Positions 8,524 through 51,719 of a stretch of DNA of 64,000 bases are shown here, piece after piece. This stretch comes from an uncultured Methanosarcinales archaeon. GTDB taxonomy: Archaea; Nanobdellota; Nanobdellia; Woesearchaeales; JAGLXL01. The stretch spans positions 26,147-90,146 of the forward strand of contig CAYLKE010000003.1 in assembly GCA_964384425.1 (NCBI GenBank), read 5' to 3'. Position 1 is the stretch's first letter. Every line of letters begins with the position of its first letter. The position numbers and the translations under genes are program-made. The notes below the pieces were generated by a model, which was given only the letters and a program-made list of their open reading frames with translations, searched no databases and was not told the origin of the DNA.

Positions 8524-8560
8524 TTTAAATATAAAAATTAATTAATAAAAAATAATAAAA

Positions 8561-8845: not shown

Positions 8846-8959
8846 TTTTCCCCTCCTTTTGTTATTAGGTTTTTATAAATATTATTTTTATAGTATAAGA
8901 GTAATGCTTTTTAATTGTTTCTATTGTGCATAGTATTAATTAATATGTTTATATATAAT

Positions 8960-13021: not shown

Positions 13022-13034
13022 TTAAAAATAACAA

Positions 13035-29660: not shown

Positions 29661-30290
29661 ATGATTGAATTATATAAATATGTAAAAACTCGAAAAGCTC
29701 CCATTGATATAAAAAATGAACTAAGTCTATTAAAGAGTATTATGTTTCGCTATAAACGATTACATGAAAAATTATTACATATAAATATTCACCCAAAACA
29801 CATTTTTATTGAAAAACTAGAGAGATCTGAAGCTGAGATTATTAGTTTAAGACTATGTAATCTTCATGAACAAAATAAAAAAAAATATACTGAACTAAAT
29901 CAAGATAAAATTCCAGGGGTTATTCTTTATATGGCTCCAGAAAGAGCTAAAGCTGAGCCTGAAAAATTTAATATTACTACAGATACATATGCATTATCTG
30001 GCATAATTTATTATTTCTTTGCTGAAAAACATCCTGTTCCAGAAAAGTATATTAAAAACAAAAACACAATTGCTTTAATTAGTAAAATTAAATCTGGAAA
30101 AATAGTTGATGAAATTGATTTTGATCCAATTAGAAAATATCCACAAGGAATTGAATTAGAAAAAATTATCAGAAAAGGCATGAGATACGAACAAAAAGAT
30201 AGGTATCAAAGTTGTGATGAAATAATTGTAGAATTGAATAAGTATAATGATTTGGAAAAATACCAAAATAAAAAACAAAATGAATATTGA
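29661..30290 (+). CDS. Kinase C-lobe-only protein (pseudokinase or truncated kinase)
   Basis: LYMAPERA (APE) and D.YALSGIIYY (subdomain IX) are present. There is no Gly loop, VAIK or DFG, and the catalytic loop is degenerate (LHINIHPKHIFI). Confidence 0.55.
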   Translation: MIELYKYVKTRKAPIDIKNELSLLKSIMFRYKRLHEKLLHINIHPKHIFIEKLERSEAEIISLRLCNLHEQNKKKYTELNQDKIPGVILYMAPERAKAEPEKFNITTDTYALSGIIYYFFAEKHPVPEKYIKNKNTIALISKIKSGKIVDEIDFDPIRKYPQGIELEKIIRKGMRYEQKDRYQSCDEIIVELNKYNDLEKYQNKKQNEY

Positions 30291-31343: not shown

Positions 31344-33086
31344 TTGATAAAATGTTTAGATTATGATATTGAAAGAGTTTTGAGTATTTTAGATTATAAA
31401 AATATAAGTTACACTCCATCAACTACAAATCTTATTAAAAAAGCCTATTTAATGAATTCAAAATTAACTGCAGAATATGTTAAGAAATATTTAAAAAAAG
31501 AAAATAAAGATAGCAAATATTTGTATCTTGCATTTAGGTTTATGGTAAAACACGATGCTGAAGTATTTGTAGATTTATACAAAAATATTACAAATAATAT
31601 TTTTGATAATCTATTTAATAATTCAAAAGACTATTCTGAAATAAGGCCCATAGTAAAAGCATTGAATTACTTAGTAAGAAAAAATATTAAATTATTTAAT
31701 GAATTGAGAGAAATGAGCAATACTTTTTTAGATTTTGAAATTGATGATAGCGACGATGAAAATTTATCTTTTAAAAAAATAATTAGTGTGTGTGAAAATT
31801 TTAAATATGCTTCTCAAAATTATGTTTTTAATTCTCCAACACAATTCTTAACTGATTATAATAATATAAATAATCAAATGAAAAAATTATTGTATATTAA
31901 TAAAATCAATGAAGAACAATTTAATACATTAAAGGAAGTGTATGTTCTCCCTGCATTAAGAAAATTAGCTAAAACCTTAGATTATGAAAAAATAAAACCC
32001 ATGGAAGAAATAGAATATAAATTTGTTAAAAAACTACTTAATGCGAATTTTATAAAGTGGGAAGGATGTGAAAGTGAAGAAGATATATTAAAAAAAATTA
32101 ATCCTTTATTTCATACAAGGAATAAATCTATACATTATAAAAAATATCATTCTATATTAGACGAGAAAAAGATTACGTCATTAAAAGAATTGCTTGAATG
32201 CGCTTCATATGATTTTGAAGGCATTTTCATAAAAAAATTAGGAGAAGGGTCTTTTGGTAATACTTATCTTGCCAAATTTATTGACAAAGGAGATAGGGCA
32301 GTTAAAATTATTAAAAAAAACAAAAACTTAGAAGAATCAATTATTTTGGATAAATTAAATCACAAGAACATTGTGAAGCTTTATCATTCGTCAGATAATG
32401 AGATTTCTAAATATGGAGAAGATTGTTCTTCTATATTTATGGAGTACATAGACGGAAAAGAACTAAGAGATATAATCGACAATAAAGAATTTAAAAAAGA
32501 AGATGCAAAGGAATGGACTTTAAACCTATTGGATGTTGTAAATTATCTTAATGAAAAAGAGATATACCACAGAGATATTAAACCAAGAAATATTAAAATA
32601 GATAGCAAGGGAATTTTAAAATTATTAGATTTTGGTGTTGCAACAACTAACATAGAAGAATATGAAGAAAAGTACAATAGAAAATATGGTGGAAGAAATA
32701 ATCTTTATTCTTTAAGTCTTATATCTTACGAATTATTTACAAGAGAATATCCTATTAAAAATGAAAAATTATTATCTACTAATTCCTTTAAAGATATGTT
32801 GAAAATATTAAAAGATGAGATGTTAGATAATGGAATCCTCAAAGATAAGTACAGATCTAAAATAAAAGAAAACATGCCTAAAGAGTTTCAAGAACCTATC
32901 ATTGCTGCTTTAGAATACAGACCACAAGAAGAATTAAATAAAGCTTTTTTTAATTTGAATGAAATAATCAAAATAAAAGAATTTGAAAGAAAAAGACCTA
33001 AAATAATCCAAACAATGAAAGATTGTGGATTTAATATTGATGGTATTACATATGATAAATATAAAAAAATAAAAAAATCATTTTAA
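31344..33086 (+). CDS. Ser/Thr protein kinase with N-terminal helical-repeat region
   Basis: GEGSFGNTY, AVKIIKK, HRDIKPRNIKID and LLDFGVA in the C-terminal 300 aa. The annotated start is TTG, and no ATG occurs in the open frame back to 31182. Confidence 0.75.
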   Translation: MIKCLDYDIERVLSILDYKNISYTPSTTNLIKKAYLMNSKLTAEYVKKYLKKENKDSKYLYLAFRFMVKHDAEVFVDLYKNITNNIFDNLFNNSKDYSEIRPIVKALNYLVRKNIKLFNELREMSNTFLDFEIDDSDDENLSFKKIISVCENFKYASQNYVFNSPTQFLTDYNNINNQMKKLLYINKINEEQFNTLKEVYVLPALRKLAKTLDYEKIKPMEEIEYKFVKKLLNANFIKWEGCESEEDILKKINPLFHTRNKSIHYKKYHSILDEKKITSLKELLECASYDFEGIFIKKLGEGSFGNTYLAKFIDKGDRAVKIIKKNKNLEESIILDKLNHKNIVKLYHSSDNEISKYGEDCSSIFMEYIDGKELRDIIDNKEFKKEDAKEWTLNLLDVVNYLNEKEIYHRDIKPRNIKIDSKGILKLLDFGVATTNIEEYEEKYNRKYGGRNNLYSLSLISYELFTREYPIKNEKLLSTNSFKDMLKILKDEMLDNGILKDKYRSKIKENMPKEFQEPIIAALEYRPQEELNKAFFNLNEIIKIKEFERKRPKIIQTMKDCGFNIDGITYDKYKKIKKSF

Positions 33087-34010
33087 ATTCAATCCATAAA
33101 TAGGAGATCCAGATTCATATATCTTGAATGCAATATTACATAAAATATGAATAATTCTAATTTCTTGTTTAGGAACTTTTTCTATTAATTCTAATCCTTT
33201 GTTATTCCATTTAGTTTTGTTATTTGCAATTCTTTCGCCTAATACTAAATCAAATGTATAATAGAAATTATAAAGATCATCAACCATTTTATTTACTTCC
33301 TTATATAAATTCATTGTAGATTTAGATACTGTAATGTTTTTTTCTTTAATTTCATCCATATATCTACAAATATACTTATAATCATCTGCAAGATCTTCTA
33401 GCCTCTGTAACAACAAAAACATAACTGTTGGTGTTTCAAATAAATTCTTTTGCATATTAACAACCCTACAACAATACATATAAAATTTATTTTGAGCATA
33501 TTCAAGACTTGCAATATTTTTTAATTCACCATATCTTTTATTTTTAATAGCATCATAAGATTCATTTGCAATAGATTTAGTTAAGAGAAATAATCTTCTA
33601 AATGATTTATCAAACTGCCCTTCATCTGTCTTAAATATGCTTTTTAAAACAACTATGCCTTTATTTTGTTCTGTTATTTCAAAACCCATCAATAAAGGTA
33701 AAGTTTTTTGGATGCTTTTAAGCATAGAAGTATCTTCATATTTTATTGATATCTCAGAAATACCTTTTCTATATAAATTAAATAGTGTTCTAGTTAGATG
33801 TCTTTTCCCTTGAATTTTCTTAAAAGAAAGTTCTATTTTCTTTTTTGTATTATATTTATCATAGTACAAACTTAATTTATTACCTTCTTCAACCAAATCA
33901 ACCTCATCTCCTTTCTTCACATTATTTGCCTTAACCCATTTACTTGGTAAACTCACCATCAATGTTGCAGGTCCTTGTTGTACGACTTTTCTTTTCATAT
34001 TTTTCACCAT
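33078..34010 (-). CDS. AbrB/SpoVT-domain + PhoU-like regulator
   Basis: N-terminal VVQQGPATLMVSLPSKWVKANNVKKGDEVDL (swapped-hairpin AbrB type), followed by a helical PhoU-like region. Confidence 0.6.
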   Translation of the reverse strand: MVKNMKRKVVQQGPATLMVSLPSKWVKANNVKKGDEVDLVEEGNKLSLYYDKYNTKKKIELSFKKIQGKRHLTRTLFNLYRKGISEISIKYEDTSMLKSIQKTLPLLMGFEITEQNKGIVVLKSIFKTDEGQFDKSFRRLFLLTKSIANESYDAIKNKRYGELKNIASLEYAQNKFYMYCCRVVNMQKNLFETPTVMFLLLQRLEDLADDYKYICRYMDEIKEKNITVSKSTMNLYKEVNKMVDDLYNFYYTFDLVLGERIANNKTKWNNKGLELIEKVPKQEIRIIHILCNIAFKIYESGSPIYGLNLK

Positions 34011-34129
34011 TTATTCTTATTTTTTAAAATATTCGAATATTATTATGCATTATTATTATATTAGGATTAAGTATATATAAATCTTTTCCATTATTCGTAA
34101 TATATTCAAAAAAGAGGAGGAAAACCAAA

Positions 34130-34582
34130 ATGAAAACGAAAGACATGAAAATTATCGCACACCTAAGGCAAAACGCAAGAATGCCTTTAACAAAAATGAG
34201 TAGAAAAACCCATATTCCAGTATCAACACTATTTGACAATTTAAAAGCAAAAGAAAAATCAATCATAAGAAAACACACAAGTCTTCTAAACTTCAGTAAA
34301 TTAGGATATGATGCAAGAGCAAATATTGCATTAAAAGTAGACAGAGATGATAAAGAAAATCTATTAAAACAATTGAAGATGGCAAATGAAGTTAATTCTC
34401 TGTATAAAATAAACAATGGATTTGATTTTATGATAGAAGGGATATTCAAGAATGTTAGAGAAATGGAATCTTTTATAGAAAACTTAGAAAATAAATTCAA
34501 GATAACAGACAAGAAATTCTTTTTTATTATAGAAGATCTAAAGAGAGAGGAATTTATGGGGAATCCTAATCTAATTAATTAA
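34130..34582 (+). CDS. Lrp/AsnC-family transcriptional regulator (copy A)
   Basis: HTH_AsnC N-terminus (KIIAHLRQNARMPLTKMSRKTHIPVSTLFDNL) plus a RAM-like C-terminus. Near-identical to 36992..37441. Confidence 0.8.
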   Translation: MKTKDMKIIAHLRQNARMPLTKMSRKTHIPVSTLFDNLKAKEKSIIRKHTSLLNFSKLGYDARANIALKVDRDDKENLLKQLKMANEVNSLYKINNGFDFMIEGIFKNVREMESFIENLENKFKITDKKFFFIIEDLKREEFMGNPNLIN

Positions 34583-34601
34583 TTTTTTATTTTGTTTTTA
34601 T

Positions 34602-35210
34602 TTAATATTTACTTAACACATACTCTTCAATTAATTGCCTAAATTCTATTGCTTTATCAACTGCTTTCTTTGCTTCATGCATTTCAGCCAATCTTGTCAT
34701 TCTATAAGTAAAGAAGTTTCTATTGTCTTTTTGTTTTTTCAAATCTCTTGCACATTTTTTAACTCTCTGTAATTCCAAAGTTTCGTCTTGTAAATCTTGA
34801 AACATTGCCAATGCTTTTGACATCCTACTAGTTGTTATTTTGTTGTTATTTTTTTGTTCAAGTTCAGAACCTTTAATAATATAATAAAACAAAAATGCCA
34901 AATAGGTTTTTTTATGAGTATCTTTCACATTATCTGGAAGTTTTTTATTATCTAAACTCAAAAGATATTCTACTTCAAAAAACATAGAATAATAACTTTG
35001 AGTAATTATCCAAATAAAAACACTTTCGTTATCATTCAATTCATTTGTTTTTTCTATCTTATCCAAAAGATAAATTGATAAGTTCAATGAATCTTTTGCT
35101 TTTCTTTTACAATGTTCTATAAATTCTTCAGAAGGTATTTTCCAAATATTTTTATTATCCCATTTAATAAAAACTTTTTTTGCTTCTTCAATATCCCTTT
35201 TCTCTAACAT
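34602..35210 (-). CDS. HEPN-domain protein (pair 1)
   Basis: All-helical, with QSYYSMFF and NRNFFTY motifs. Overlaps the stop of the upstream MNT gene. Confidence 0.55.
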   Translation of the reverse strand: MLEKRDIEEAKKVFIKWDNKNIWKIPSEEFIEHCKRKAKDSLNLSIYLLDKIEKTNELNDNESVFIWIITQSYYSMFFEVEYLLSLDNKKLPDNVKDTHKKTYLAFLFYYIIKGSELEQKNNNKITTSRMSKALAMFQDLQDETLELQRVKKCARDLKKQKDNRNFFTYRMTRLAEMHEAKKAVDKAIEFRQLIEEYVLSKY

Positions 35211-35826
35211 ACTGTTTCACCATTGCATAATATTGTTCTGTTCCAAAAACAACAATTCCATGTTGAAAGGCACTTCTTCCGACACTATTTCTTTTTTCAA
35301 GCATCTTCATAAAATCTTCAACACAAACAATATTTATGTCTTTTTTGAATGCAGTATGTAATCTAGATATTTTATTAAGTCTTTCCTTGTATTTCTCGGT
35401 ATCTTTCCGATAAGGAATAATAAAAAGTAAATCCAAATCTGAATTTTTAGTATGTTTTTGTTTTGCATAAGAACCAAAAATAACTAAACTATAAAACATA
35501 TCATATAAATCTTCTTTTATTTCTTTTAAAAAAAGAACAATTTTTGGTTTTTTCTTCAAAAAATTATTTCCCTCATATAATATAGCAGAACTTAACCTAT
35601 CTATTGAAACATTGCAAAAATCAATAGATATCAAATTAGATCTTCCTTTTTTCTCTAATTTTATTATTTTTCTCTTAATCAATCCAGGAATTATTTTATG
35701 TACTGTTACATAAGACAAATTAGTTTCTTTTGATATTTGGTTTAAACTTTTACTTTCCAAAGGAGATCTAAGTAATTTTCCAATTATTTTATTTTTAGTA
35801 TCAGTATAATTTTTCATATTATTCAC
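35188..35826 (-). CDS. wHTH + minimal nucleotidyltransferase (MNT) protein (pair 1)
   Basis: IFGSYAKQKHTKNSDLDLLFI (GS...D.D NTase motif) with an N-terminal wHTH. Confidence 0.75.
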   Translation of the reverse strand: MNNMKNYTDTKNKIIGKLLRSPLESKSLNQISKETNLSYVTVHKIIPGLIKRKIIKLEKKGRSNLISIDFCNVSIDRLSSAILYEGNNFLKKKPKIVLFLKEIKEDLYDMFYSLVIFGSYAKQKHTKNSDLDLLFIIPYRKDTEKYKERLNKISRLHTAFKKDINIVCVEDFMKMLEKRNSVGRSAFQHGIVVFGTEQYYAMVKQYVREKGY

Positions 35827-35932
35827 TTAGTATATAATATTATATACTAAATATATAAATGTTTCTATACTTATATTAAATTGTTAATTATTTTACATAA
35901 AAACCATTTATTATATTATTAATATAAATTAT

Positions 35933-36874
35933 CTAATGAAGAATTTTCTCAACTTCTATTCTATATTCCATAATGGTTGCATCACCAATATGTTTATGAA
36001 TCTCTTTTCTTATTTTTTTATATTGTTCGTCTTTTTCTGTTTGAAATGCATAATATAAATTAACATATCCTACTGCTTTAATGATTATTACAAAATGAGG
36101 ATTTCCTCTGGCCCATTTAATAAATTTCTCAATCTTTTCTTCTTCAGCAGGATTAATTCTGCAAATAAAGGTATACTCTCTAATTCCAATTTTAGGAAAT
36201 TCAACTAAAGGGTAAAATCTTTGAATAATGCCTTCTTTTTGTAATTTTTTCATTCTTCTCTTAATAGTATCATGATGAACATTAATTTTTTTAGACATAT
36301 CTAATATATGCATTCTAGAATTTTCTTTTAATAAATGAATAATTCTTTTATCAGTTTCATCAATAATTATATTTTTAGTTTTATCTTTTATATCGCATTT
36401 AGCAATTTTATCTTTATTTAGTAATCTTGTGAGATAAGTATAACTCCTGACACTTTGAAAACTAATATAATTAGTTACATGATCCTTTAAAATTTTAAGA
36501 ACCTTTGTTTGTATTTTATCATATTCTTCAATTGTTTTAGTCCAGACACTCACATATAATTTCCATTGACTGATTTCATGTAAAACATAACAGCAACTAA
36601 TCTTTTTAATTTTTAAAATTTCATTTATTTTTTTATTTATTTCATCATCATAAGTATTTTTAAGATCAAAATATATTGAATGTCTATTCATACTTAAAAG
36701 TTGATAATTAATCATAGTAGTAAATTTAGTTATAATGCCTTCATTAATCATCTTATTGATTCTATTAGAAATAGTTTTTTCAGGTATTTTTGTTATTTTT
36801 GACAATTGTTTATTTGATAACCTTGAATTTTGAAATAATTCAAATAATATTATTTTATCTTTTTTATCGAGCAT
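35933..36874 (-). CDS. Tandem (double) Lrp/AsnC-type regulator
   Basis: Two HTH_AsnC modules (KIILFELFQNSRLSNKQLSKITKIPEKTISNRI and RIIHLLKENSRMHILDMSKKINVHHDTIKRRM). Start set at MLDKKDK. Confidence 0.7.
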   Translation of the reverse strand: MLDKKDKIILFELFQNSRLSNKQLSKITKIPEKTISNRINKMINEGIITKFTTMINYQLLSMNRHSIYFDLKNTYDDEINKKINEILKIKKISCCYVLHEISQWKLYVSVWTKTIEEYDKIQTKVLKILKDHVTNYISFQSVRSYTYLTRLLNKDKIAKCDIKDKTKNIIIDETDKRIIHLLKENSRMHILDMSKKINVHHDTIKRRMKKLQKEGIIQRFYPLVEFPKIGIREYTFICRINPAEEEKIEKFIKWARGNPHFVIIIKAVGYVNLYYAFQTEKDEQYKKIRKEIHKHIGDATIMEYRIEVEKILH

Positions 36875-36991
36875 AAAATAATTAAAAAGCATATTTTATA
36901 AATATTTGCTTAATTTCAGCCATTTTTCTTAAAGAATATATAATAACATGAAAAATATTTTCTTTGTAAACAAAAAAAAGGAGGATTTACA

Positions 36992-37441
36992 ATGAAACCG
37001 AAAGAATTGAAAATTATCGCACACCTAAGACAAAACGCAAGAATGCCTTTAACAAAGATGAGCAGAAAAACCCATATTCCAGTATCAACATTATTTGACA
37101 ATTTAAAAGCAAAGGAAAAATCAATTATAAGAAAACATACTAGTCTTTTAAACTTCAGCAAATTAGGATATGATGCAAGAGCAAATATTGCATTAAAAGT
37201 AGACAGAGACGATAAAGAAAATCTATTAAAACAATTGAAGATGGCAAATGAAGTTAATTCTCTGTATAAAATAAACAATGGATTTGATTTTATGATAGAA
37301 GGGATATTCAAGAATGTTAGAGAAATGGAATCTTTTATAGAAAACTTAGAAAATAAATTCAAGATAACAGACAAGAAGTTTTTCTTTATCATAGAAGATC
37401 TGAAAAGAGAGGAATTCATGAGTAATGAGAACTTGGTTTAG
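36992..37441 (+). CDS. Lrp/AsnC-family regulator (copy B) with replaced C-terminus
   Basis: Near-identical to copy A up to ...REEF. It ends MSNENLV where copy A ends MGNPNLIN, because an inserted cassette starts at ~37417. Confidence 0.8.
   Translation: MKPKELKIIAHLRQNARMPLTKMSRKTHIPVSTLFDNLKAKEKSIIRKHTSLLNFSKLGYDARANIALKVDRDDKENLLKQLKMANEVNSLYKINNGFDFMIEGIFKNVREMESFIENLENKFKITDKKFFFIIEDLKREEFMSNENLV
37336..37420. repeat. 85-bp direct repeat, left copy (right copy 43873..43957)
   Basis: Base-by-base comparison shows the copies are identical except one C/T at 37417/43954. Confidence 0.9.
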
Positions 37442-37541
37442 GCATATAATGTCGGAAAGTTTACGAAATCTGAAACATATAATTAATATAGACTTTTCAT
37501 TATATTGTATTTTTATATATGTATTAAGACAATTCAGAAAA

Positions 37542-38408
37542 ATGAATAAAATTAAAGCAAATAAAATAAATCTAGCAATTATTTCTCCTTTTAATTATTT
37601 GGAACACTCTCTAAAAGGAGATATACACATGGCTTTAACTCATTTAGTTCTAAATGAAGATAATTTAGAATATGTTCAGTTTTATCGTCAATCGAATAAA
37701 TATAAAATATTAGATAATTCGGCATTTGAGCTAGAAGAATTAGGGGTTGGGTTAAAATCAAACCTAGTTTTAAAAGCAGCTGATATTATTTCAGCAGATG
37801 AAATAATTGCAACAGATGTACTTTACAAAGCAGAGGAAACAATTGAATCAACAATAAATTTCATAAATGATGTAAAAAATAAAAATAAACATTCAGATTA
37901 TAAAATTCAGGCTGTTGCTCAAGGATCATCAAAAAAAGAGATTTTATATTGTTTTCATGAATTAATGAAAATGAATAGTGTTAATGTGATTGGATTAAGC
38001 AAATTAGGAATTCCTGCTTCATATAAAGATCACATAATGGAAGGCGATGTCATGAGATCAAGAATTAGTTTCATTAACACAATAATTAATTCTAAAAAAT
38101 ACAAATTAATAAATTCACAACTTCAATTTAAAGATTATTCTCCAAAAAGCTTACATTTATTGGGGAGCGATAACAGGGGCTTTCAAGAATTATGGTACTA
38201 TAGGAATATTCCATTCATAAGATCCATGGATACTTCAATGCCTATTTGGTATGCATTAAATGGAAAATACATAAGTGAAAGTGAAAATTTTATTCCTGAA
38301 TTATTTAAAGAGAAAGTTGATTTTAAATATACAGAAGAAAATAAAAAATTGTCCTCAAAAAGAATTAAGAATAATTTAGAAAAACTAATGAAAAATTCAT
38401 GGAGGTAA
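37542..38408 (+). CDS. TGT-superfamily TIM-barrel protein, DpdA-like (putative base-exchange transglycosylase)
   Basis: Ordered motif matches to tRNA-guanine transglycosylase: LDNSAFE (cf. DSGGFQ), QAVAQGSS (cf. GIVQGG), NVIGLSKLG (cf. AIGGL), LHLLGSDN (cf. YLMGVG), SMDTSMP (cf. FDCVLP). No Zn site or PUA domain. Start set at the ATG at 37542. Confidence 0.5.
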   Translation: MNKIKANKINLAIISPFNYLEHSLKGDIHMALTHLVLNEDNLEYVQFYRQSNKYKILDNSAFELEELGVGLKSNLVLKAADIISADEIIATDVLYKAEETIESTINFINDVKNKNKHSDYKIQAVAQGSSKKEILYCFHELMKMNSVNVIGLSKLGIPASYKDHIMEGDVMRSRISFINTIINSKKYKLINSQLQFKDYSPKSLHLLGSDNRGFQELWYYRNIPFIRSMDTSMPIWYALNGKYISESENFIPELFKEKVDFKYTEENKKLSSKRIKNNLEKLMKNSWR

Positions 38409-38782
38409 AAATGAAAATCAAAAGATGGGTAACTATAAAAACATCATTTAATGGAATTCATAATTGGGAAAGATGCCCTATCAAAAGTGTAAATTTTCTT
38501 AAATATCCACATAGACATAAATTTTTAGTTAATTTAAGCATTCAAGTAAATGATGCTGATAGAGAAATTGAATTTTTTGTATTTCAAAAACAAATCAATG
38601 AAATAATAAAATCTTTATTTGAGAAACAAGAAAATGGTTGTTTGAATTTGGGATCAAGAAGTTGTGAACATGTATCTGATTTAATTTATAATAAAATAAG
38701 TGAAATTTATGGTAATGCAAATTGCCGAATAACTATTAGTGAGGATGGTGAAAATGAAGCAACCTGTGAATATGTCAATTGA
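38399..38782 (+). CDS. QueD/6-pyruvoyl-tetrahydropterin-synthase-like (T-fold) protein
   Basis: FNGIHNW..C...YPHRHKF.V.L (His triad plus Cys pattern), SCEH, and a C-terminal ...ATCEY comparable to the QueD C-terminus. Overlaps the upstream gene. Confidence 0.55.
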   Translation: MEVKMKIKRWVTIKTSFNGIHNWERCPIKSVNFLKYPHRHKFLVNLSIQVNDADREIEFFVFQKQINEIIKSLFEKQENGCLNLGSRSCEHVSDLIYNKISEIYGNANCRITISEDGENEATCEYVN

Positions 38783-39776
38783 AGAAAAATACATGAAGAT
38801 AGCTATTGAATTATCTAAAAAAGGTAATTTAATTCATAGTCCTTATGTTGGATGCGTTGTTGTTAAATCAGATAAAATTATTGGAAAGGGATTTTACGAA
38901 TATGAAGGAGCTCAACATGCTGAAGTAATGGCTTTTAAGAATATACCTTCGAATGATGCAAATAAATCTACAGTGTATGTAACTGTAGAACCATGTTCAG
39001 TTTATTCACGTACTCCTCCATGCACCAGACTTCTAATAGAAAAAGGTATTGAAAAAGTAGTTATGGGTATGTTAGATCCAAATCCATTGACTAAGGGAAG
39101 AAGTATTAAAAAATTTAAAGAAAATAACATTGACTTCCAAATTGGGATTTACGAACAGGAAATAATTAAATTAAATCAAAATTATATAAATACTGTATTA
39201 AACAACATAGATAATAAGGAGTGTTTTAAATATCGTGGTGTTCTTTCATTATGTGGGTTACCCGGATCAGGAAAAAGTCAAATAAGTAGAATCGTAAAAT
39301 CAATGTATGATATTGATGTTTTAGATGTTAGCTCAAAGTTACGAAGTATATCTATTGAACGATATGGCAATTCAAACAGAAACAATCTCATAAAAACTAG
39401 AGAAAAGATTATTAATTCTATGGGCAAAACAGGAGTTTTGGAATTAGCTTTATCAGAACATAAACTCAATTCTGATATTCTTTTAATCGATAGTGTTAGA
39501 ATTCTAAAAGACATAGAATTATTGTATAATAAATTTTCATCTTATTCTAAGACTATTGGGGTAATTGCTTCAAAGTATCAAAGATATCAAAGAATAAAAG
39601 AAAGAAGTAACAATAACATTTCCCATGAAGAGTTTATATCAAGAGATAAATGGGAGAAGAAAATAGGTGTCACAGAATGTATTGCTTCTTCAGATTATGT
39701 AATAAATAATTTGACTGATTTAAGCAACTTAAAAAAACAAATCCATGATTTGTTAGACCATTTTTATTTATTATAA
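38772..39776 (+). CDS. RibD-type cytidine/deoxycytidylate-deaminase-fold domain fused to a P-loop nucleotide kinase
   Basis: HAEVMAF...TVYVTVEPCSVYSRTPPC...MLDPNP (RibD deaminase signature), then GLPGSGKS (Walker A) and an R-rich lid (QRYQRIKER). The start is ambiguous (38739 GTG, or 38754 or 38772 ATG). Confidence 0.7.
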   Translation: MSIEEKYMKIAIELSKKGNLIHSPYVGCVVVKSDKIIGKGFYEYEGAQHAEVMAFKNIPSNDANKSTVYVTVEPCSVYSRTPPCTRLLIEKGIEKVVMGMLDPNPLTKGRSIKKFKENNIDFQIGIYEQEIIKLNQNYINTVLNNIDNKECFKYRGVLSLCGLPGSGKSQISRIVKSMYDIDVLDVSSKLRSISIERYGNSNRNNLIKTREKIINSMGKTGVLELALSEHKLNSDILLIDSVRILKDIELLYNKFSSYSKTIGVIASKYQRYQRIKERSNNNISHEEFISRDKWEKKIGVTECIASSDYVINNLTDLSNLKKQIHDLLDHFYLL

Positions 39777-40558
39777 TTAGAACAGGAAGAATTAATTTTG
39801 CAAGAAGAACATAATTTTTTACTACAACCATATGAACCTGTAATCCACATAGCCCTATCTAAATCAAGAATATTAATATCATTATCTTTGCAGTAATCAG
39901 TATAGAATTTCTGTAGCTGAGATGCATAAAAATATTTGTCTTCTCGTGAATTTGTTTCTAAAGCAATTTTTGTCCACAAACTAATATTTACATCATGAGA
40001 ATCAATAGGCATCATCAATCCATCTAAACTTTTTGGACTTATAAGTTTTTGTTCTATCATGAAAAAGACGAGTAAATTTGATATTTTTGGACCAAACCCA
40101 TAAAAGTCAGATAAATTATTTAAGATATTCTTCACATCACCCTTAAAGACATTTTTTACATTCGATTGGTAATTATTAACTAATAATTGTGAATTATTTA
40201 ACCATCTTTTAATAGCTTGATTAGGAAATCTAGGTTTTAAATATTTTCTTAGATCTGATGATAATGTTTCTTCTTCATATTTAATAATTTGTTCTGCATC
40301 AAATAATTTGGGATTTTCATTATACATAGCAATCCCTCTTTCAATCAAAGAACTCATTTTAGTCCCATAATTAATGGAATTCATATAAAATAAAAATTTA
40401 AAGTGTTCTTCACTACCTGTTTTTATTGATGAAGGAATATTTTGATCAGGAGTGATAATATTCTCAGTAAATATGCCTGTTTTGTTATAAAATGAACTCA
40501 TTAATTCATTAATGACTTTTTTACTACGAGACAAATTAAATTTTAATTTATATTTCAT
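39764..40558 (-). CDS. HhH-GPD superfamily DNA glycosylase with C-terminal 4-Cys (Fe-S loop-like) motif
   Basis: HhH FYGFGPKISNLL, catalytic-Asp region MPIDSHD, and C-terminal GCSKKLCSSCKINSSC (C-x5-C-x2-C-x5-C, close to the EndoIII/MutY cluster spacing). Confidence 0.65.
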   Translation of the reverse strand: MKYKLKFNLSRSKKVINELMSSFYNKTGIFTENIITPDQNIPSSIKTGSEEHFKFLFYMNSINYGTKMSSLIERGIAMYNENPKLFDAEQIIKYEEETLSSDLRKYLKPRFPNQAIKRWLNNSQLLVNNYQSNVKNVFKGDVKNILNNLSDFYGFGPKISNLLVFFMIEQKLISPKSLDGLMMPIDSHDVNISLWTKIALETNSREDKYFYASQLQKFYTDYCKDNDINILDLDRAMWITGSYGCSKKLCSSCKINSSCSNYNK

Positions 40559-41465
40559 ATTTTTTTAGTATGTGGTCTATTTTCTTTATTGCGTAAGATG
40601 TTGTTTTTATAAATCTATCAGTTTTAATAAGGTTGTTAATTTTTTCATGATTCAAATTAAAATCATACCCTACTTGACTAATAGATTCACTAGCAATAAA
40701 AGTAGCAAATTTTAATGAACTGATTAAATTATTAGTTAAATTATAATTATATATAAAACTAGTTGCAAAGAAGTCTCCCGCACCAGTAGAGTCAATTTCT
40801 TTATTTGGATACGAACTAGTATGGTAAATTTTATTATTTTTAAATAATAAAGAACCTTCTTTATCTAATGTAACAAATAACATCAAATCTTTGTTACTTT
40901 TTGTTAATTGATTTATAGTACTTATTGTATTTTGATTTTCTAATTCTTTAATTTCACTCTTGTTAACAAATAAATAATTAACATTTTTAGAGATAGATAA
41001 TAATCTTTTAAGATTCCGAGCATAATCTCCTTGTGGGGAGAATGCCAAAGGAATATTTTCTCTCTTTGCTTTATTGGAAACATTTTTATGAAGTGAGTAA
41101 TTTGAAGTACATAAATAAATGAATTCAGAGTTCCAGAATTCATAAGGTAATCTCTCTAATTTCATTAATTTTTGTGATTCTCCAGATATCAATACTTTCC
41201 TTTCGTCTTCACAACGATAATCCAAAGTTATTCTTTTTGTTTTGACATTTTCTTTATTAATCTTCAAATTAATATTTTTCTTTTTAAGAAAATCAATAAA
41301 TTTAGGAGAGAAATCGTTGCCTATTGTAGTATATAATGAAACATCTGATTTAAATTGTGTAAAACTCAGAGATGCATAAATTGCAGAACTTCCCATTAAA
41401 GTAATTTCTTTATCATTATAAATTAAATTATCTATAGAGATTGAACCAAGTACAGAATATTTCAT
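40548..41465 (-). CDS. PfkB-family (ribokinase-like) sugar/nucleoside kinase
   Basis: C-terminal signature DSTGAGDFFATSFIY. Length and N-terminal beta-strand pattern are typical of the family. Confidence 0.75.
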   Translation of the reverse strand: MKYSVLGSISIDNLIYNDKEITLMGSSAIYASLSFTQFKSDVSLYTTIGNDFSPKFIDFLKKKNINLKINKENVKTKRITLDYRCEDERKVLISGESQKLMKLERLPYEFWNSEFIYLCTSNYSLHKNVSNKAKRENIPLAFSPQGDYARNLKRLLSISKNVNYLFVNKSEIKELENQNTISTINQLTKSNKDLMLFVTLDKEGSLLFKNNKIYHTSSYPNKEIDSTGAGDFFATSFIYNYNLTNNLISSLKFATFIASESISQVGYDFNLNHEKINNLIKTDRFIKTTSYAIKKIDHILKKYEI

Positions 41466-42442
41466 TTTTCTAGATCTATTATGTCTCCAATATTTGGACC
41501 TTTTGTTAAAAGAGCCACCTTAACATTCGTTTGTTCTTCTATAAAGTTAATGGTTTTTTGAACATTTCTATCTATTTCATTGTTCATTGAAATATAATCT
41601 GTGAAAGTTAATGCTATTTTAGTTGCACCATTTACTATAGAAGCATTTTTAATCAAATCAACATCCAGACCCCCAACTCTCCGTAATCTTTTAGTTATCG
41701 ATGAATATTCTTTTATATTACTATTTGTTTCTTCTTGATACAATCTTCCTGGTCCAACTCTGCTTTCTCTACATCTTACAACTAAATAAACCTCTTTAAC
41801 TCTTTGAGGAGATAAGCCTAGACTAGACAGAGCCTCTGAAGTTGTTGTATCTCTACTAGTAACGTAAGGATAATCTCCATGATATAAAGATAATCCAAAT
41901 CCTTGACTCCCTTCGACAATCAAAGAATCTCCATTATTTAATCTTGAATTTATCTCTTTTACTGTATCTATTTGATATTCACTTAATATTTTAATATCTT
42001 TCATCAATTTAGCTTTTCTTAAAATTCTATCAGAATATGCTTCTCCAACACCTGATAAAGTTGATCCAACTTCTTTTTCAAGAAATTTATTTTGTTTTTC
42101 TCTAAGAATATATTCTTCTTCAATAACTGCACTAAATTTATCGACTTTGACTCTATTTGGGTTTAATTTAAACATATTGATTTCAGTAAGTAATGTCTGG
42201 GGGTGAATTAACATTCCTCTAGATAAATACAATGTTGTGTTATTGTTTGTAACTCCTGCAGGAATATGTCTTAATACTATTTTTTCATTGTTGTAATGAA
42301 TAGTATGTCCTGAATTATATGATCCTACTCTTGCCGCCATATTAAAATTATCTCTATTACATAAATAAGATGAAATTCGCCCTTTTCCTTCATTACCATA
42401 TTGAGATCCAATAACTAGAGTAACTTCATTTTTATAATCCAT
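41462..42442 (-). CDS. Short adenylosuccinate-synthetase-family enzyme (PurA/PurZ-like) with Asp->Asn in the P-loop
   Basis: GSQYGNEGKGR (cf. PurA GTQWGDEGKGK), NSGHT (cf. NAGHT), VEGSQG, YPYVTS, SRVGPG, KRLRRVGGLD. 326 aa, like short archaeal PurA. Confidence 0.7.
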   Translation of the reverse strand: MDYKNEVTLVIGSQYGNEGKGRISSYLCNRDNFNMAARVGSYNSGHTIHYNNEKIVLRHIPAGVTNNNTTLYLSRGMLIHPQTLLTEINMFKLNPNRVKVDKFSAVIEEEYILREKQNKFLEKEVGSTLSGVGEAYSDRILRKAKLMKDIKILSEYQIDTVKEINSRLNNGDSLIVEGSQGFGLSLYHGDYPYVTSRDTTTSEALSSLGLSPQRVKEVYLVVRCRESRVGPGRLYQEETNSNIKEYSSITKRLRRVGGLDVDLIKNASIVNGATKIALTFTDYISMNNEIDRNVQKTINFIEEQTNVKVALLTKGPNIGDIIDLEK

Positions 42443-42791
42443 TTTGAATCATCCCCTTATCAGTATCAAAACTTAACATATTAATATCATCAATTGGTAT
42501 CCACATTAATTCTTCTGCTTCATTTGTTTTAATTTCTCCATCCCATTGAGATATCAAGTAATAATTTATGTTCAGGACATTTCTTGTTTTAGTTCCTAAG
42601 AATTTAATCTCTTTTGCTTTAATATTTAATTCTTCTTTAATTTCTCTTGTGACTGCATTTTCATGCGATTCATTAGCCTCAACTTTTCCACCAGGAATCA
42701 TGATTGTATCTGGATCTAATAATTTATTTTTCTTTCTTTTTTCAACAAGAATCATATTTTCTTTTTTTAATATAAAAGATACAATTTCCAT
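42432..42791 (-). CDS. Nudix hydrolase (MutT-like)
   Basis: Nudix box GKVEANESHENAVTREIKEELNI fits G-x5-E-x7-REUxEE. Confidence 0.8.
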   Translation of the reverse strand: MEIVSFILKKENMILVEKRKKNKLLDPDTIMIPGGKVEANESHENAVTREIKEELNIKAKEIKFLGTKTRNVLNINYYLISQWDGEIKTNEAEELMWIPIDDINMLSFDTDKGMIQNGL

Positions 42792-42954
42792 AAAGTTAGC
42801 AAATTTAAGTAATATATAAAGATTATCTTAATTTAATAGTATAATGTCGGAAATAATCTGACAGTAAGTTTAATAAATAAGTTTATCACTTAGATGATAT
42901 AAAAAAATAAATCAAAAAGATGCTAAAAAATATGCATTACAATAATTTAAGAAA

Positions 42955-43344
42955 ATGCCTGAATTAGAAAAGCAGTGGAATATTATTCATTCAGAATCAA
43001 TAATAGAAATATTGAACGTTATTGCTACTAACAAAAATATGAATTTAGAAAAATTCTTTTCTTTGGCATGGCTACATGATATTGGAAAAATTAAATCAGA
43101 AAAAAACCATGCAGAAATAAGTTTAGAAATGTTAAAAGAAGAATTTGAATTGGATGAAATTGATAAAGATTGTATTTTAAATCATGGATCCTCATCAGAA
43201 CCAAAGACCAAAGAAGGAGAAATATTTCGTTATGCTGATGGATTATCTTTATTTACTAATGAATCGATTAAGTTTAGATTCTATGCAGAGGCTAAAGAAG
43301 GATTAGATTTTGAACAAATCAAAGAAAAACTCAAAAAGATATAA
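42955..43344 (+). CDS. Small HD-domain phosphohydrolase
   Basis: LAWLHDIGK (HD dyad) with downstream H (NHAE, LNHG) and D (YADG) residues. 129 aa. Confidence 0.6.
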   Translation: MPELEKQWNIIHSESIIEILNVIATNKNMNLEKFFSLAWLHDIGKIKSEKNHAEISLEMLKEEFELDEIDKDCILNHGSSSEPKTKEGEIFRYADGLSLFTNESIKFRFYAEAKEGLDFEQIKEKLKKI

Positions 43345-43421
43345 AAAGTATAAGATAAAATATTAAGATTTGAAAACAACATTATATTTTCAAAGAAACT
43401 ACATCAGCTAAAAATACAAAA

Positions 43422-43871
43422 ATGAAAAACTTAACTAAATTCCTAAAATATGCAAAAAAGAAAGCATATGCTTCGAAATTAACTTTTCCTAAGAAGACAA
43501 TTTTTAATGGTAAACGACATATAATTAAAAAAGATGATTTGATTTATATTGATACTTATTATGGAGATAAAACATTTTCAGGTAAGGAAGTTATATTAAT
43601 TAAAAAATCTCCTGTTTGGTCTATGGTTTATTATGGAGGTATTAAAGATAATGACTTAAATAAAAAAGATATTTACAAATTCTTAAAATATTGTTTAAGA
43701 GATATTCCAGATACATTTCCAATAAGAGGGAAAAACAATATTGTTAAAAATAGATTCAAATATGTAAATAAATGGAAAGGGGATTTAAAATCATTTGAAG
43801 GAAACGAAAGGATTTATTTTAAAGAAAAATTAGTGTATTCTTTGAGATATATTGGTGGAAAAATCAATTAA
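43422..43871 (+). CDS. Hypothetical protein (DUF5680-like by recollection)
   Basis: The pattern Y.D.Y.G...F.G.E.V......P.W.M.Y.GG is recalled from DUF5680-type proteins. The assignment is unverified. Confidence 0.3.
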   Translation: MKNLTKFLKYAKKKAYASKLTFPKKTIFNGKRHIIKKDDLIYIDTYYGDKTFSGKEVILIKKSPVWSMVYYGGIKDNDLNKKDIYKFLKYCLRDIPDTFPIRGKNNIVKNRFKYVNKWKGDLKSFEGNERIYFKEKLVYSLRYIGGKIN

Positions 43872-43872
43872 A

Positions 43873-43981
43873 TATAGAAAACTTAGAAAATAAATTCAAG
43901 ATAACAGACAAGAAGTTTTTCTTTATCATAGAAGATCTGAAAAGAGAGGAATTTATGGGGAATCCTAATCTAATTAATTAA
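43873..43981 (+). pseudogene. Orphan 3' fragment of the Lrp/AsnC gene
   Basis: Its 5' part is identical to copy B (37336..37416). Its 3' part and downstream 17 nt are identical to copy A (34553..34599). It encodes ...EEFMGNPNLIN*. Confidence 0.85.
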
Positions 43982-44002
43982 TTTTTTATTTTGTTTTTGT
44001 TT

Positions 44003-44107
44003 ATTATGATTTATAAATTCCTCGCTAGTACTTGTCCAGTGTGTCCAGTGGAATCATTCCGAATAATTGTTAGAAGTGTTTTTAAAAAATATTTCTTAAG
44101 AAAAGTT
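44003..44107. repeat. Junction repeat A, copy 1
   Basis: attatgatttataaattcctcgctagtacttgtccagtgtgtccagtggaa + hairpin ggaat-c-attcc + ..ttgttagaagtgtttttaaaaaatatttcttaagaaaagtt, ending at a start codon (44108). Confidence 0.85.
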
Positions 44108-44761
44108 ATGGAAAACCGAAAACTATTTAAATGTTTAAATAATATAAACAATTGTTTAAAAATGTTAAACATAATAAATAAAGGTTATAAAAAGATATTG
44201 AAGTTATTTTATGATAATAGAAAGAGTTTTCATCTTAGGGAAATTGCTAAAAAAACTTCTCTTAATGAAAATAGTGCATATCGTTTTCTTAATGTTTTAG
44301 AAAAAGAAAACATATTAAAATCAAATAAAAAAGCTAATCTTAAGCTTTTTTCATTAAATAAAAACAATAAAGTTTATTCTTTGTTGTCTTGTTTTGATAT
44401 TGAAAGATATGAAAAACTTCCTTCTATAAAAAAACAAGCAATAGGATATTTTTTAGAAAAATTAGATAAAAAACCATTTATAGTGATACTATTTGGTTCA
44501 ACAGCAAAAGAAACTTATAGAAAAGATTCAGATATTGATTTGTTTTTAATAGTCAATGAAAAGATAAATACTAGAAAAGCAAAAAATTACACTGATTCAC
44601 AAACAGCACAAATAATAAATGATTTTCAAATAAGTTTTAATGATTTTAAAAAAGATCTTAAAATGAAATCAGAAAAAGTTCTGCAATCAGCTCTTGAAAC
44701 AGGATATCCCATATTAAATCATATTGAGTTTTATAGGTGTGTTGAAGATGAAGAAATATGA
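44108..44761 (+). CDS. wHTH + MNT nucleotidyltransferase (pair 2)
   Basis: LFGSTAKETYRKDSDIDLFLI. Start moved to the ATG at 44108, because the track's N-terminal extension translates repeat A. Confidence 0.75.
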   Translation: MENRKLFKCLNNINNCLKMLNIINKGYKKILKLFYDNRKSFHLREIAKKTSLNENSAYRFLNVLEKENILKSNKKANLKLFSLNKNNKVYSLLSCFDIERYEKLPSIKKQAIGYFLEKLDKKPFIVILFGSTAKETYRKDSDIDLFLIVNEKINTRKAKNYTDSQTAQIINDFQISFNDFKKDLKMKSEKVLQSALETGYPILNHIEFYRCVEDEEI

Positions 44762-45649: not shown

Positions 45650-45684
45650 TTTTCCCCTCCTTTTTAATAATAATATTTTTAGAA

Positions 45685-45843
45685 ATTATGATTTATAAAT
45701 TCCTCGCTAGTACTTGTCCAGTGTGTCCAGTGGAAAGATACTAAAAACTCAAAAGTTTTGGTATCTTAAAAAATCTTTGATTTTTGTAAGATTTCCGATT
45801 AATTGTTAGAATCACTTTTAAAAGAATTTTCTTAAGAAAAGTT
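45685..45843. repeat. Junction repeat A, copy 2 (with 53-nt insertion 45738..45790 in the hairpin loop)
   Basis: First 50 nt are identical to copy 1. The insertion is flanked by aagat/aagat and contains a 12-bp stem (agatactaaaac/gttttggtatct, one U-G pair). The repeat runs into the radC start. Confidence 0.85.
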
Positions 45844-46500
45844 ATGAAAATAAAAGAGATGTGTGTAAGGGAAAGACCAAGAGAGAGGTTGAAGAAAGAT
45901 GGAGTTAGTTGTTTGAGTAATTCTGAGTTGTTAGGTGTTGTTTTAGGCAATGGAAGTAGAAAAGAGAATGTTGTTGATATGTGTAATAGATTGATTTCTA
46001 ATATTGGAATGAAGAAGTTGAGTAAAAGTAGTTTGAAAGAGTTGCAAGAGTTTCATGGAGTTGGTTTTTGTAAAGCTTGTCAGATACTTGCTTTGTTTGA
46101 GTTTTGTAAACGGGTGGAAGTTATTAAGAATGAAAGAGTTATTATTAAAAGTGCTAAAGATGTTTTTAATTATATTTATCCAAAAGTTAAAGATTTAGAT
46201 AAAGAACATTTTATTGTTTTGATGTTAGACACAAGAAATGGAATTATTAAAGATGAAGTTGTATCAGTGGGAACGTTAAATAGTTCTTTAATTCATCCTC
46301 GTGAAGTGTTTAAGTCAGCTATAAAAGAAAGTGCAAATGCATTGATCCTCGTTCACAACCATCCATCAGGTGATTGTAGTCCATCAGATGAAGATATTGA
46401 TGTTACAAAGAAGTTGATAAAAGTTGGAGAGGTTGTTGGAATAAAAGTACTAGATCATGTAATTGTTGGAGGAGGGAAATGGTGGAGTTGGGATGGATGA
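45844..46500 (+). CDS. radC: RadC-like JAB-domain protein
   Basis: N-terminal RERPRERL...LSNSELLGVVLG, HhH-like region, JAMM motif HNHPSG...PS..D. Confidence 0.85.
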   Translation: MKIKEMCVRERPRERLKKDGVSCLSNSELLGVVLGNGSRKENVVDMCNRLISNIGMKKLSKSSLKELQEFHGVGFCKACQILALFEFCKRVEVIKNERVIIKSAKDVFNYIYPKVKDLDKEHFIVLMLDTRNGIIKDEVVSVGTLNSSLIHPREVFKSAIKESANALILVHNHPSGDCSPSDEDIDVTKKLIKVGEVVGIKVLDHVIVGGGKWWSWDG

Positions 46501-48639: not shown

Positions 48640-48660
48640 ATAACTTAAAGTAGAAAATTA

Positions 48661-48815
48661 ATTTATAAATTTCTCGCTAGTGGTTGTCCAGTGTGTCCAG
48701 TGGAAAGGTTTCCGATTAGTTGTTAGAAGTGCTTTTAAAAAATATTTTTTTAATTAGTTATATGAAGATAAAAGAGATGTGTGTAAGGGAGAGGCCTAGA
48801 GAGAGGTTGAGGAAA
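48661..48815. repeat. Junction repeat A, copy 3, including an 18-codon radC 5' fragment (48762..48815)
   Basis: atttataaatttctcgctagtggttgtccagtgtgtccagtggaaaggtttccgattagttgttagaagtg..., then atgaagataaaagagatgtgtgtaagggagaggcctagagagaggttgaggaaa (MKIKEMCVRERPRERLRK). Homology to radC stops there. Confidence 0.85.
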
Positions 48816-49845: not shown

Positions 49846-49890
49846 ATGTTAACTTATGTTAATATATAAATGTTTTGGTTTTTTGATTAA

Positions 49891-49964
49891 AAGAATTCCT
49901 GATGGTTGTTAGAAGTGTTTTTAAAAGAATTTTCTTAAGAAAAATCATGAAGATAAAAGATATG
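49891..49964. repeat. Junction repeat A, partial copy 4, with radC start remnant (ATG 49947)
   Basis: gaattcctgatggttgttagaagtgtttttaaaagaattttcttaagaaaaatcatgaagataaaagatatg. It lacks the ctcgctagt...ccagtgg half. Confidence 0.75.
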
Positions 49965-51598: not shown

Positions 51599-51618
51599 AT
51601 CAATTGTTAGTTATTATT

Positions 51619-51719
51619 CTTTATAAATTCCTCGCTAGTGGTTGTCCAGTGTGTCCAGTGGAAAGATTTCCGGATGATTGTTAGAAGTGTTTTTAAAAAA
51701 TATTTTTATAATTTTTTTA
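51619..51719. repeat. Junction repeat A, copy 5
   Basis: ctttataaattcctcgctagtggttgtccagtgtgtccagtggaaagatttccggatgattgttagaagtgtttttaaaaaatattttt..., ending at the PIN start codon. Its TATA is centred 26 nt from the ATG of the minus-strand DinD fragment. Confidence 0.85.

Follow-up and report, generated by a model that had tools for sequence, protein, structure and literature searches.

The stretch of DNA analysed here (the window, 64,000 nt of contig CAYLKE010000003.1; all coordinates are counted from its first letter) carries two genes for regulators of the Lrp/AsnC family, Lrp A and Lrp B, and a cassette of nine genes that is bracketed by an 85-nt direct repeat, the left copy of which lies in the 3' part of Lrp B. 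The window is archaeal, with genes for FttA/aCPSF1, a proteasome subunit, Spt5 and class II aminoacyl-tRNA synthetases and a GC content of about 25%. Homologs of Lrp come overwhelmingly from metagenome-assembled genomes of Woesearchaeota and Nanoarchaeota, and since the best one outside the contig is only 74% identical, there is no close relative among the 5.8 billion proteins searched. The host is a DPANN (Woesearchaeota-like) archaeon and the segment is located in a chromosomal accessory island.

The initial annotation of this DNA had described two repeat copies that are identical except for one base, a copy of Lrp that reads through into cassette DNA and acquires a new C-terminus, and a displaced original 3' end that survives to the right of the cassette. 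All three descriptions were confirmed. The repeat copies agree at 84 of 85 positions, and the one position that differs (37417 is C, 43954 is T) is 4 nt away from the point of divergence. Their first 81 nt are an exact match with a start-to-start spacing of 6537 nt; the longest exact direct repeat arising by chance was 16 to 21 nt in 20 simulated sequences with the dinucleotide transition frequencies of the window. At the left border the identity stops at GAGGAATT(C/T)ATG, and Lrp B runs on as AGTAATGAGAACTTGGTTTAG, with an identity of about 58% to the displaced tail. The resulting protein end, FMSNENLV*, fits the family consensus FMSN-x-NL-(V/I) of 120 homologs, and therefore the incoming DNA would have carried a genuine Lrp 3' end. 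Past the right repeat follows ATGGGGAATCCTAATCTAATTAATTAA with downstream sequence (43958-44007), identical to Lrp A through 34599, and the homology ends at 34608/44007. Both borders are abrupt; a single nucleotide separates the right repeat from the TAA that ends the last cassette gene, which encodes a DUF5680 protein. No terminal inverted repeats were detected; the longest match between the cassette ends is 11 nt of A/T-rich sequence. The coordinates of all features are compiled in Table 1.

Table 1. Features of the Lrp-RadC region, with coordinates in the window.
Feature	Coordinates	Strand	Remarks
Lrp/AsnC copy A	34130..34582	+	150 aa, ends EEFMGNPNLIN*; divergent from AbrB/PhoU-like gene 33078-34010
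Lrp/AsnC copy B	36992..37441	+	149 aa, ends EEFMSNENLV*; last 7 codons and stop are cassette DNA
Direct repeat, left copy	37336..37420	+	encodes IENLENKFKITDKKFFFIIEDLKREEFM of Lrp B
Cassette-borne replacement Lrp tail (SNENLV*)	37421..37441	+	about 58% identical to displaced tail
DpdA3-family TGT-like transglycosylase	37542..38408	+	mechanical open reading frame starts at 37425; TATA-like TTTTATATAT about 25 nt upstream of ATG 37542
QueD/PTPS-like T-fold protein	38411..38782	+	conserved partner of DpdA3-like gene
RibD-like deaminase fused to P-loop nucleotide kinase	38739..39776	+	Pfam dCMP_cyt_deam_1 and AAA_18
HhH-GPD-like DNA-glycosylase-like protein	39764..40558	-	C-terminal C-x5-C-x2-C-x5-C motif, Fe-S-type
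PfkB-family (ribokinase/nucleoside-kinase-like) kinase	40548..41465	-	Pfam E 4.5e-21, NCBIfam; PfkB also in L006 and L091
Short archaeal-type adenylosuccinate-synthetase homolog	41462..42442	-	Asn at catalytic Asp13 (GNEGKG)
NUDIX (MutT-like) hydrolase	42432..42791	-	NUDIX gene also flanks module in L091
Small HD-domain phosphohydrolase	42955..43344	+	Pfam E 2.7e-10
DUF5680 protein	43422..43871	+	stop ends 1 nt before right repeat
Direct repeat, right copy	43873..43957	+	
Displaced original Lrp tail (GNPNLIN*) with about 25 nt of native downstream sequence	43958..44007	+	
U-module copy 1	43993..44110	+	fused at ATG to nucleotidyltransferase gene, which the U-module drives
U-module copy 2	45675..45846	+	native promoter and leader of RadC (45844-46500)
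U-module copy 3	48645..48815	+	with 54-nt RadC 5' remnant
U-module copy 4	49890..49950		degenerate; RadC 5' remnant of about 18 nt
U-module copy 5	51603..51705	+	fused at ATG to PIN-domain gene

The reading of this anatomy as the footprint of an insertion is the most economical one and is likely, while the mobility of the cassette is unproven. The initial annotation had called the footprint att-like: the insertion itself is made likely by the junction anatomy and the recurrence of the module elsewhere, but a site-specific event found no support, as no integrase was detected in the window and none of 100 Lrp genes from related loci is accompanied by an orphan 3' fragment. From the repeat, the chimeric gene and the displaced tail we infer the direction and the mechanism of the event, and we lean, with moderate confidence, towards an acquired module that host recombination inserted into Lrp B under the guidance of homology. 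The sequence 37421-43872 is then a probable horizontally acquired functional module of nine genes. The incoming DNA would have brought its own copy of the Lrp 3' end, and recombination with the chromosomal Lrp B would have placed the module inside the gene, swapping the last codons for the element-borne tail, so that 85 bp of Lrp and the native tail, now displaced, came to lie beyond the module. Most likely the homologous-recombination machinery of the host, rather than a dedicated integrase, would have acted here, because neither the unit nor the window contains a recombinase and because neighbouring segments are likewise bracketed by the ends of core genes. Two routes are conceivable. In the first, a circle carrying an Lrp fragment would have been inserted by a Campbell-type event. 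In the second, a one-ended homologous crossover near 37417-37420 would have gone together with an illegitimate join at 37336, by which 85 bp were duplicated; this route would explain both the variants shared by the two repeat copies (see below) and the position of the sole mismatch at the edge of the crossover.

Several observations weigh against an insertion by homology or against the function proposed below for the cargo. Both 85-nt copies carry the variants typical of Lrp B, so that the same six variants separate both from Lrp A, and a single crossover alone leaves this unexplained; the shared variants need a donor of the same lineage, later homogenisation or gene conversion, or a true duplication of 85 bp at an illegitimate right-hand join. 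The composition of the cassette is native (tetranucleotide z = 0.18; GC 0.26 versus 0.24-0.25 in the flanks), and a foreign composition was therefore rejected. Genes for FolE, QueE or QueC, which would supply a 7-deazaguanine precursor, are missing from the window. An architecture with two Lrp genes around other genes is conserved in the related loci L017 and L020, and the multiple copies found here could be old. No empty site, circular junction or second context of the cassette was found in the collections searched, because none of these collections holds a close relative. Finally, the contig is a short-read metagenome assembly in which three near-identical Lrp segments lie within 10 kb.

The DNA of Lrp B is 95% identical to that of Lrp A from the ATG onward, and both proteins match AsnC_trans_reg and HTH_24 of Pfam. 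Between Lrp A and a reconstructed Lrp B before insertion, 21 of 453 coding positions differ; 17 of these differences are at third codon positions, and three amino acids are changed. The differences are distributed in patches: a tract of 167 identical nt (34349-34515), the longest exact repeat in the window, is followed by seven differences crowded into 34516-34555, and this pattern suggests gene conversion. Lrp A occupies the ancestral position, because its pairing with the PhoU-like gene is conserved; in 37 of 79 related loci Lrp and an AbrB/PhoU-like gene lie side by side in divergent orientation. Among the relatives, two or three Lrp paralogs occur in tandem or with 2.4-2.7 kb of other genes between them. 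These paralogs, the native composition of the cassette and a 167-nt exact tract in a gene that otherwise diverges by 5%, which indicates active gene conversion, are compatible with a history without any insertion, in which the right fragment is a decayed third paralog, with its 5' part deleted and its first 81 nt homogenised with Lrp B, and the cassette genes would just happen to stand between two old paralogs. Such a history would need two coincidences, a deletion ending 1 nt past the last cassette stop codon and a conversion tract ending exactly where the tail of Lrp B switches. The native tail of Lrp B would moreover be only about 58% identical to that of its sister, as against 95% for the rest of the gene, and a self-contained module that recurs in distant taxa is absent from the related Lrp loci. 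We consider a decayed paralog improbable.

In several of these relatives two Lrp paralogs bracket a ThyA-like gene and a gene of about 550 aa; in the related Woesearchaeota L017 (9950-13329) and L020 (6821-10456) the paralogs are 57-62% identical, and the layout equals that of the window with other genes inside. Upstream of the PhoU-like/Lrp pair the window contains three genes with Ser/Thr protein-kinase domains (25755-28826, 29661-30290 and 31344-33086), and kinase genes upstream of Lrp were also observed in a few related loci (L012, L016 and L025).

The statement of the initial annotation that the unit is free of recombinases proved correct: the nine open reading frames (ORFs) of the cassette showed no match to an integrase, transposase or resolvase family in Pfam, PHROGs, NCBIfam or PADLOC. 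The same was true for the roughly 60 ORFs of at least 90 aa that were scanned in the window, which covers 64 kb of the 106-kb contig. A site-specific integrative element, with the 85-bp repeat as attL and attR and an integrase that was lost or is encoded elsewhere in the genome, is in our view unlikely. Such elements are classically recognised by direct repeats that overlap a gene 3' end and by a replacement 3' end on the element; here the element-borne Lrp tail would belong to attP and restore the target gene. The three Lrp-derived copies do not vary in the first 41 nt of the repeat, the genome was inspected over the 64 kb only, and tycheposon islands display tandem accretion, partial target copies and degenerate remnants without integrase (bioRxiv 10.1101/2020.12.28.424599), all of which would agree with this explanation. 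Besides the lack of a recombinase in unit and window, however, the site is not recurrently used: among 100 full-length Lrp genes in 79 related archaeal loci no orphan 3' fragment was found, and apart from full paralogs no duplicate of at least 24 nt of the Lrp 3' end, so that a recurrent att site at the 3' end of Lrp was rejected. The other brackets of the island, a 480-nt whole Lrp gene and a module of about 120 nt, would not be made by one att-specific enzyme, and no cassette homolog was seen adjoining an integrase. Neither did the invariant 41-mer give an exact match in genome and metagenome contig collections, nor was a donor of the new Lrp tail found among the 79 related loci. A transposon or casposon was rejected on account of the missing terminal inverted repeats, a duplication that is 85 nt and not short, and the absence of a transposase or Cas1. 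An integron cassette was likewise rejected, since an integrase is lacking, the repeats correspond to gene ends or promoters, no inverted repeat occurs at the borders and the leader of the U-module (see below) has no conserved fold.

In an independent Logan assembly of run SRR15425353 a contig matches 37387-43902 without a difference. Its first 31-mer is the earliest one to include the C variant, and its last letters are the first 30 nt of the right repeat; at both points a 31-mer graph has to branch. These ends indicate that both repeat variants are present in the reads, and the graph fits an integrated and a circular copy alike. It is conceivable that the chromosomal Lrp B is intact and that a separate molecule of 6.5 kb (a circle, an episome or a strain variant) was threaded through the shared 85 bp during assembly: the de Bruijn graph of the run breaks at the repeat borders and equally fits a loop traversed once, and the repeats of 81 and 167 nt in this region exceed typical k-mers. 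The unit encodes no replication, partition or integrase functions, however, which would be odd for an autonomous replicon, and in the deposited contig a single consistent path runs through the region. An artefact of this kind therefore has a low probability, and the biology would change little, as the element would still share an att-like sequence of 85 bp with Lrp B.

Insertion by homology also has to be seen in the context of the island as a whole, which the initial annotation had missed in two respects: several repeat-bracketed segments lie in the same island, and the cargo of the cassette is a base-modification module of the DpdA3 type. A repeat search over the entire window and subsequent alignments revealed that Lrp and RadC, the core genes on either side of the island, supply the brackets of its segments in the form of duplicated gene ends. 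Lrp A and Lrp B form a direct repeat of 480 nt (95% identity) around a segment with HEPN, nucleotidyltransferase and two helix-turn-helix (HTH) genes (34609-36990); the duplicate comprises the whole gene from the ATG to 25 nt beyond the stop codon (34129-34608 versus 36991-37420 plus 43958-44007). The second type of bracket, designated U-module, measures about 120 nt and consists of a TATA box TTTATAAAT, a leader that contains GTCCAGTG twice, and a start codon. It occurs in four to five copies, which bracket nucleotidyltransferase/HEPN, ORF6N and Bro-N cassettes of the toxin-antitoxin type. A 22-mer of the U-module is present four times versus zero occurrences expected; it gave no match in metagenome and viral contigs and is absent upstream of RadC in the relatives. 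The leader of the copy that precedes RadC is interrupted midway by 53 nt (45740-45792) that are lacking in the other copies. A structured RNA is not indicated for the leader, with a consensus energy of -1.5 kcal/mol and no covariation. A scan for sigma-70 promoters and terminators stayed below the expectation from shuffled sequence, the sigma-70 model being uninformative for an archaeon. The brackets differ in sequence and length, which argues against one att-specific enzyme and favours homology-guided recombination as a recurring process.

Between and beyond Lrp and RadC we identified five nucleotidyltransferase genes, each followed by a HEPN gene (two Pfam matches) or a HEPN-like ORF, together with ORF6N, Bro-N and PIN genes, a Schlafen-type helicase and a DUF4238 protein. 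The region is a typical accessory or defence island. The distance from Lrp to RadC is 11.3 kb here, compared with 0.9 kb (L069) and 4.6 kb (L034) in two relatives, and except for a NUDIX homolog the cassette genes have no counterpart in the 79 related Lrp loci.

The first gene of the cassette encodes the transglycosylase. Its start at ATG 37542 is probable because the homologs align from about residue 40. The protein has 15 homologs in a large protein collection and no Pfam match, and its AF2 model (pLDDT 87.7, pTM 0.84) is a TIM barrel of the TGT type. The top Foldseek matches of the model were ArcTGT (1j2b), TGT (2pot) and DpdA (7ui4), with E values from 1e-6 to 7e-6 and TM scores of about 0.5. 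CGPG_00065 of the Cellulophaga phage phiST, which has been named DpdA3 and belongs to a subfamily tied to complete guanine replacement (Cui et al. 2023, PMC10516641), was matched by tblastn with E 4e-9 over 78% of the query at about 26% identity, and the family profile aligned to it in hhalign with 99.9% and E 7e-31 over 255 columns. The gene for the T-fold partner adjoins the DpdA3-like gene also in L006 and L091. The profile of the large family of this partner matches PH0634 (2dj6), a PTPS/QueD homolog, with E 1.7e-4, and 10 of 40 members match PF01242. This QueD-like partner is the only candidate gene for 7-deazaguanine synthesis in the window; the homologous loci L005, L009 and L091 carry FolE/FolE2, PTPS and QueE-like genes. 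PDB searches with the sequence only returned nothing for a 327-aa protein, a 127-aa protein (as single sequence), the HD protein and the DUF5680 protein.

The deaminase-kinase fusion matches the RibD deaminase with E 3e-38, and its kinase part resembles that of an anti-phage dCTP deaminase; an assignment of the fusion to the anti-phage dCTP deaminases was rejected at 42.8 bits versus a cutoff of 400. In PADLOC, the cassette gave only this partial dCTPase-kinase match and PDC-S07 for the NUDIX protein. The HhH-GPD-like protein shows a weak match to TIGR03252 and aligns weakly to the HhH-GPD protein of L006, and in L006 and L091 the corresponding position is taken by a bona fide HhH-GPD gene. 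The HD protein matched neither DatZ nor a PDB chain by sequence.

The adenylosuccinate-synthetase homolog is closest to PurA from Pyrococcus horikoshii (E 1e-64). The catalytic Asp13 is present in 99% of PurA sequences, whereas 147 of 147 phage PurZ proteins have Ser and four archaeal sequences have Ser or Gly at this position (PMC12884076). In the nearest database relatives of the cassette protein, which are at most 43% identical, the position is mostly occupied by Gly (48) or Ser (41). The NCBIfam scores were 165.8 for PurZ (cutoff 300), 325.6 for NF003295 (cutoff 368) and 231.8 for TIGR00184 (cutoff 395.55). The protein was assigned neither to PurZ (Asn instead of Ser, score under the cutoff) nor to PurA (Asn at Asp13, scores under the cutoffs), but the kinship at the level of the fold is clear. 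A viral scan gave no match for it. In L002 (816-5096) and L003 (2524-6828) we observed an operon of an RNase_H_2-domain protein, a PurA homolog with Gly at the catalytic Asp, a DCD-like protein and a deoxynucleoside/thymidylate kinase; it represents a large clade of PurA homologs without this Asp in cellular and metagenomic contigs.

The gene set of the cassette recurs in distant contexts. In L006, a metagenomic contig with 37% GC, the DpdA3-like gene, the partner, a Tmk-like kinase, a flavin adenine dinucleotide (FAD) protein, PfkB and HhH-GPD lie together (1186-6348). In L091, from an actinobacterial chromosome (Micromonospora sp. Llam7, JAHCDI010000004.1; 957-11747), the module contains a methyltransferase, a radical-SAM protein, FolE, PTPS, a QueE-like protein and PfkB and continues with two Tmk-like kinases, the FAD protein, HhH-GPD, the DpdA3-like protein, the T-fold partner and NUDIX; a Mu-type transposase and IstB are encoded 5 kb from it. 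The core common to the cassette and these relatives comprises the DpdA3-like protein, the T-fold partner, a kinase, an HhH-GPD or HhH-GPD-like protein and PfkB, with NUDIX shared by the cassette and L091. In the cassette the kinase is fused to the RibD-like deaminase, and the PurA-like enzyme, the HD protein and the DUF5680 protein are added to the core. No terminal overlap indicative of circularity was detected in L006 and L007. A third locus, L009 (ENA BAEC19-1 scaffold_4049, a 35-kb contig; 3130-13101), combines a DpdA3-like gene with PTPS, a nucleoside deoxyribosyltransferase, an enzyme of the IMPDH/GMPR family, a Ser-type PurA homolog and FolE2. In toyocamycin biosynthesis a route of GMPR and adenylosuccinate synthetase (AdSS) turns the preQ0 nucleotide into 7-deazaadenines (bioRxiv 10.64898/2026.04.15.718813); the set of L009 resembles these GMPR and AdSS steps and would be compatible with a pathway in which a 7-deazaguanine nucleotide is turned into one of the 7-deazaadenine type.

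From homology and synteny we infer that the cargo is a coherent module for 7-deazapurine-type nucleotides and DNA base modification. The transglycosylase of the DpdA3 family would exchange a base in DNA, the QueD-like protein, PfkB, the deaminase-kinase, NUDIX, HD and the PurA/PurZ-like enzyme would make or condition the pool of modified nucleotides, and the HhH-GPD-like glycosylase may act on DNA. Only tentatively, and at a probability that we consider small, would we join two further readings. The cassette, the Micromonospora module and L006 would represent an undescribed cellular DNA-modification system, possibly for modification and restriction, that centres on the DpdA3-type transglycosylase, the T-fold partner, the HhH-GPD glycosylase and the nucleotide kinases. 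In this archaeon the Asn-type PurZ-like enzyme would be an extension of the system and could yield a base of the 7-deaza- or 2-amino-adenine type in archaeal chromosomal DNA. At the same time, cassettes would be stacked without integrase in DPANN archaea, with the duplicated 3' end of Lrp and the promoter and 5' end of RadC as reusable landing pads for homologous recombination.

Two further features were noted at the other end of the window. A third tRNA (6192-6293, minus strand, 102 nt, 57.6 bits in Rfam) is located between tRNA-Ser and tRNA-Asn; it was not reported by ARAGORN and probably carries an intron. Five tandem repeats of about 246-249 nt (99-1344; ORF 673-1779, minus strand) encode PKD/Ig-like domains of a surface-type protein.

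Islands that target gene 3' ends, such as tRNA islands and the tycheposons of Prochlorococcus (bioRxiv 10.1101/2020.12.28.424599), resemble the locus in that direct repeats of the target 3' end bracket the cargo, an element-borne tail keeps the target intact, segments are stacked between conserved genes and the cargo is of the adaptive or defence type. They differ from it as the target here is the protein-coding Lrp/AsnC gene, no integrase or fragment of one is present, the brackets measure 85 nt, 480 nt and about 120 nt, and the site is not reused in 79 loci. For naturally transformable bacteria, Campbell-type and homology-facilitated (one-ended) recombination of foreign DNA has been described. 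It is not known from DPANN archaea. As is proposed for the locus analysed here, short homology guides the insertion in these events, recipient sequence at the junction is duplicated or rearranged and no recombinase of the element is needed; here the process would have recurred at both borders of one island.

The cargo can be compared with three known systems. With DpdA3 of phage phiST (PMC10516641) it shares full-length profile homology, the TIM-barrel model and a QueD-like neighbourhood. Unlike the phage proteins, this copy lies in a cellular archaeal chromosome, in a window without FolE, QueE and QueC, and it is accompanied by HhH-GPD, PfkB, nucleotide kinases and NUDIX, a set unmentioned in the cited literature. 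The PurZ/DatZ/MazZ Z-cluster (PMC8342488, PMC12884076) likewise has a short archaeal-type adenylosuccinate-synthetase homolog without Asp13, with an HD phosphohydrolase and an enzyme of the nucleoside-triphosphate pyrophosphatase type beside it. In the cassette, however, Asn is found instead of Ser and NUDIX instead of MazG, the HD protein does not match DatZ, DpoZ is missing, and the best structural relative of the synthetase homolog is P. horikoshii PurA. The bacterial Dpd restriction-modification island (dpdA-K; PMC10164549) also has a chromosomal transglycosylase of the DpdA family, which would mark self DNA with a 7-deazaguanine derivative, but it spans about 20 kb versus 6.5 kb here and its DpdA is of a different subfamily. 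Homologs of DpdB, DpdC and DpdD-K were not detected in the cassette with PADLOC, Pfam and NCBIfam. Taken together, the insertion scar is of a known kind; the cellular module of the DpdA3 type with an Asn-type PurA homolog and the stacked island without a recombinase are more unusual.

In the cited literature DpdA3 transglycosylases are known from phages alone, in which every guanine is replaced by their action (PMC10516641), and a cellular DpdA3 in a conserved module suggests a use of the same chemistry for self-marking or defence in bacteria and archaea. The Asn-type PurA homolog is a third variant beside the split between PurA (Asp) and PurZ (Ser/Gly). DPANN archaea have tiny genomes with few recognisable mobile elements, and the acquisition of accessory genes in this group is poorly understood. 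If true, an island that is bracketed by the ends of core genes and lacks a recombinase would point to plain homologous recombination as a route of cassette capture.

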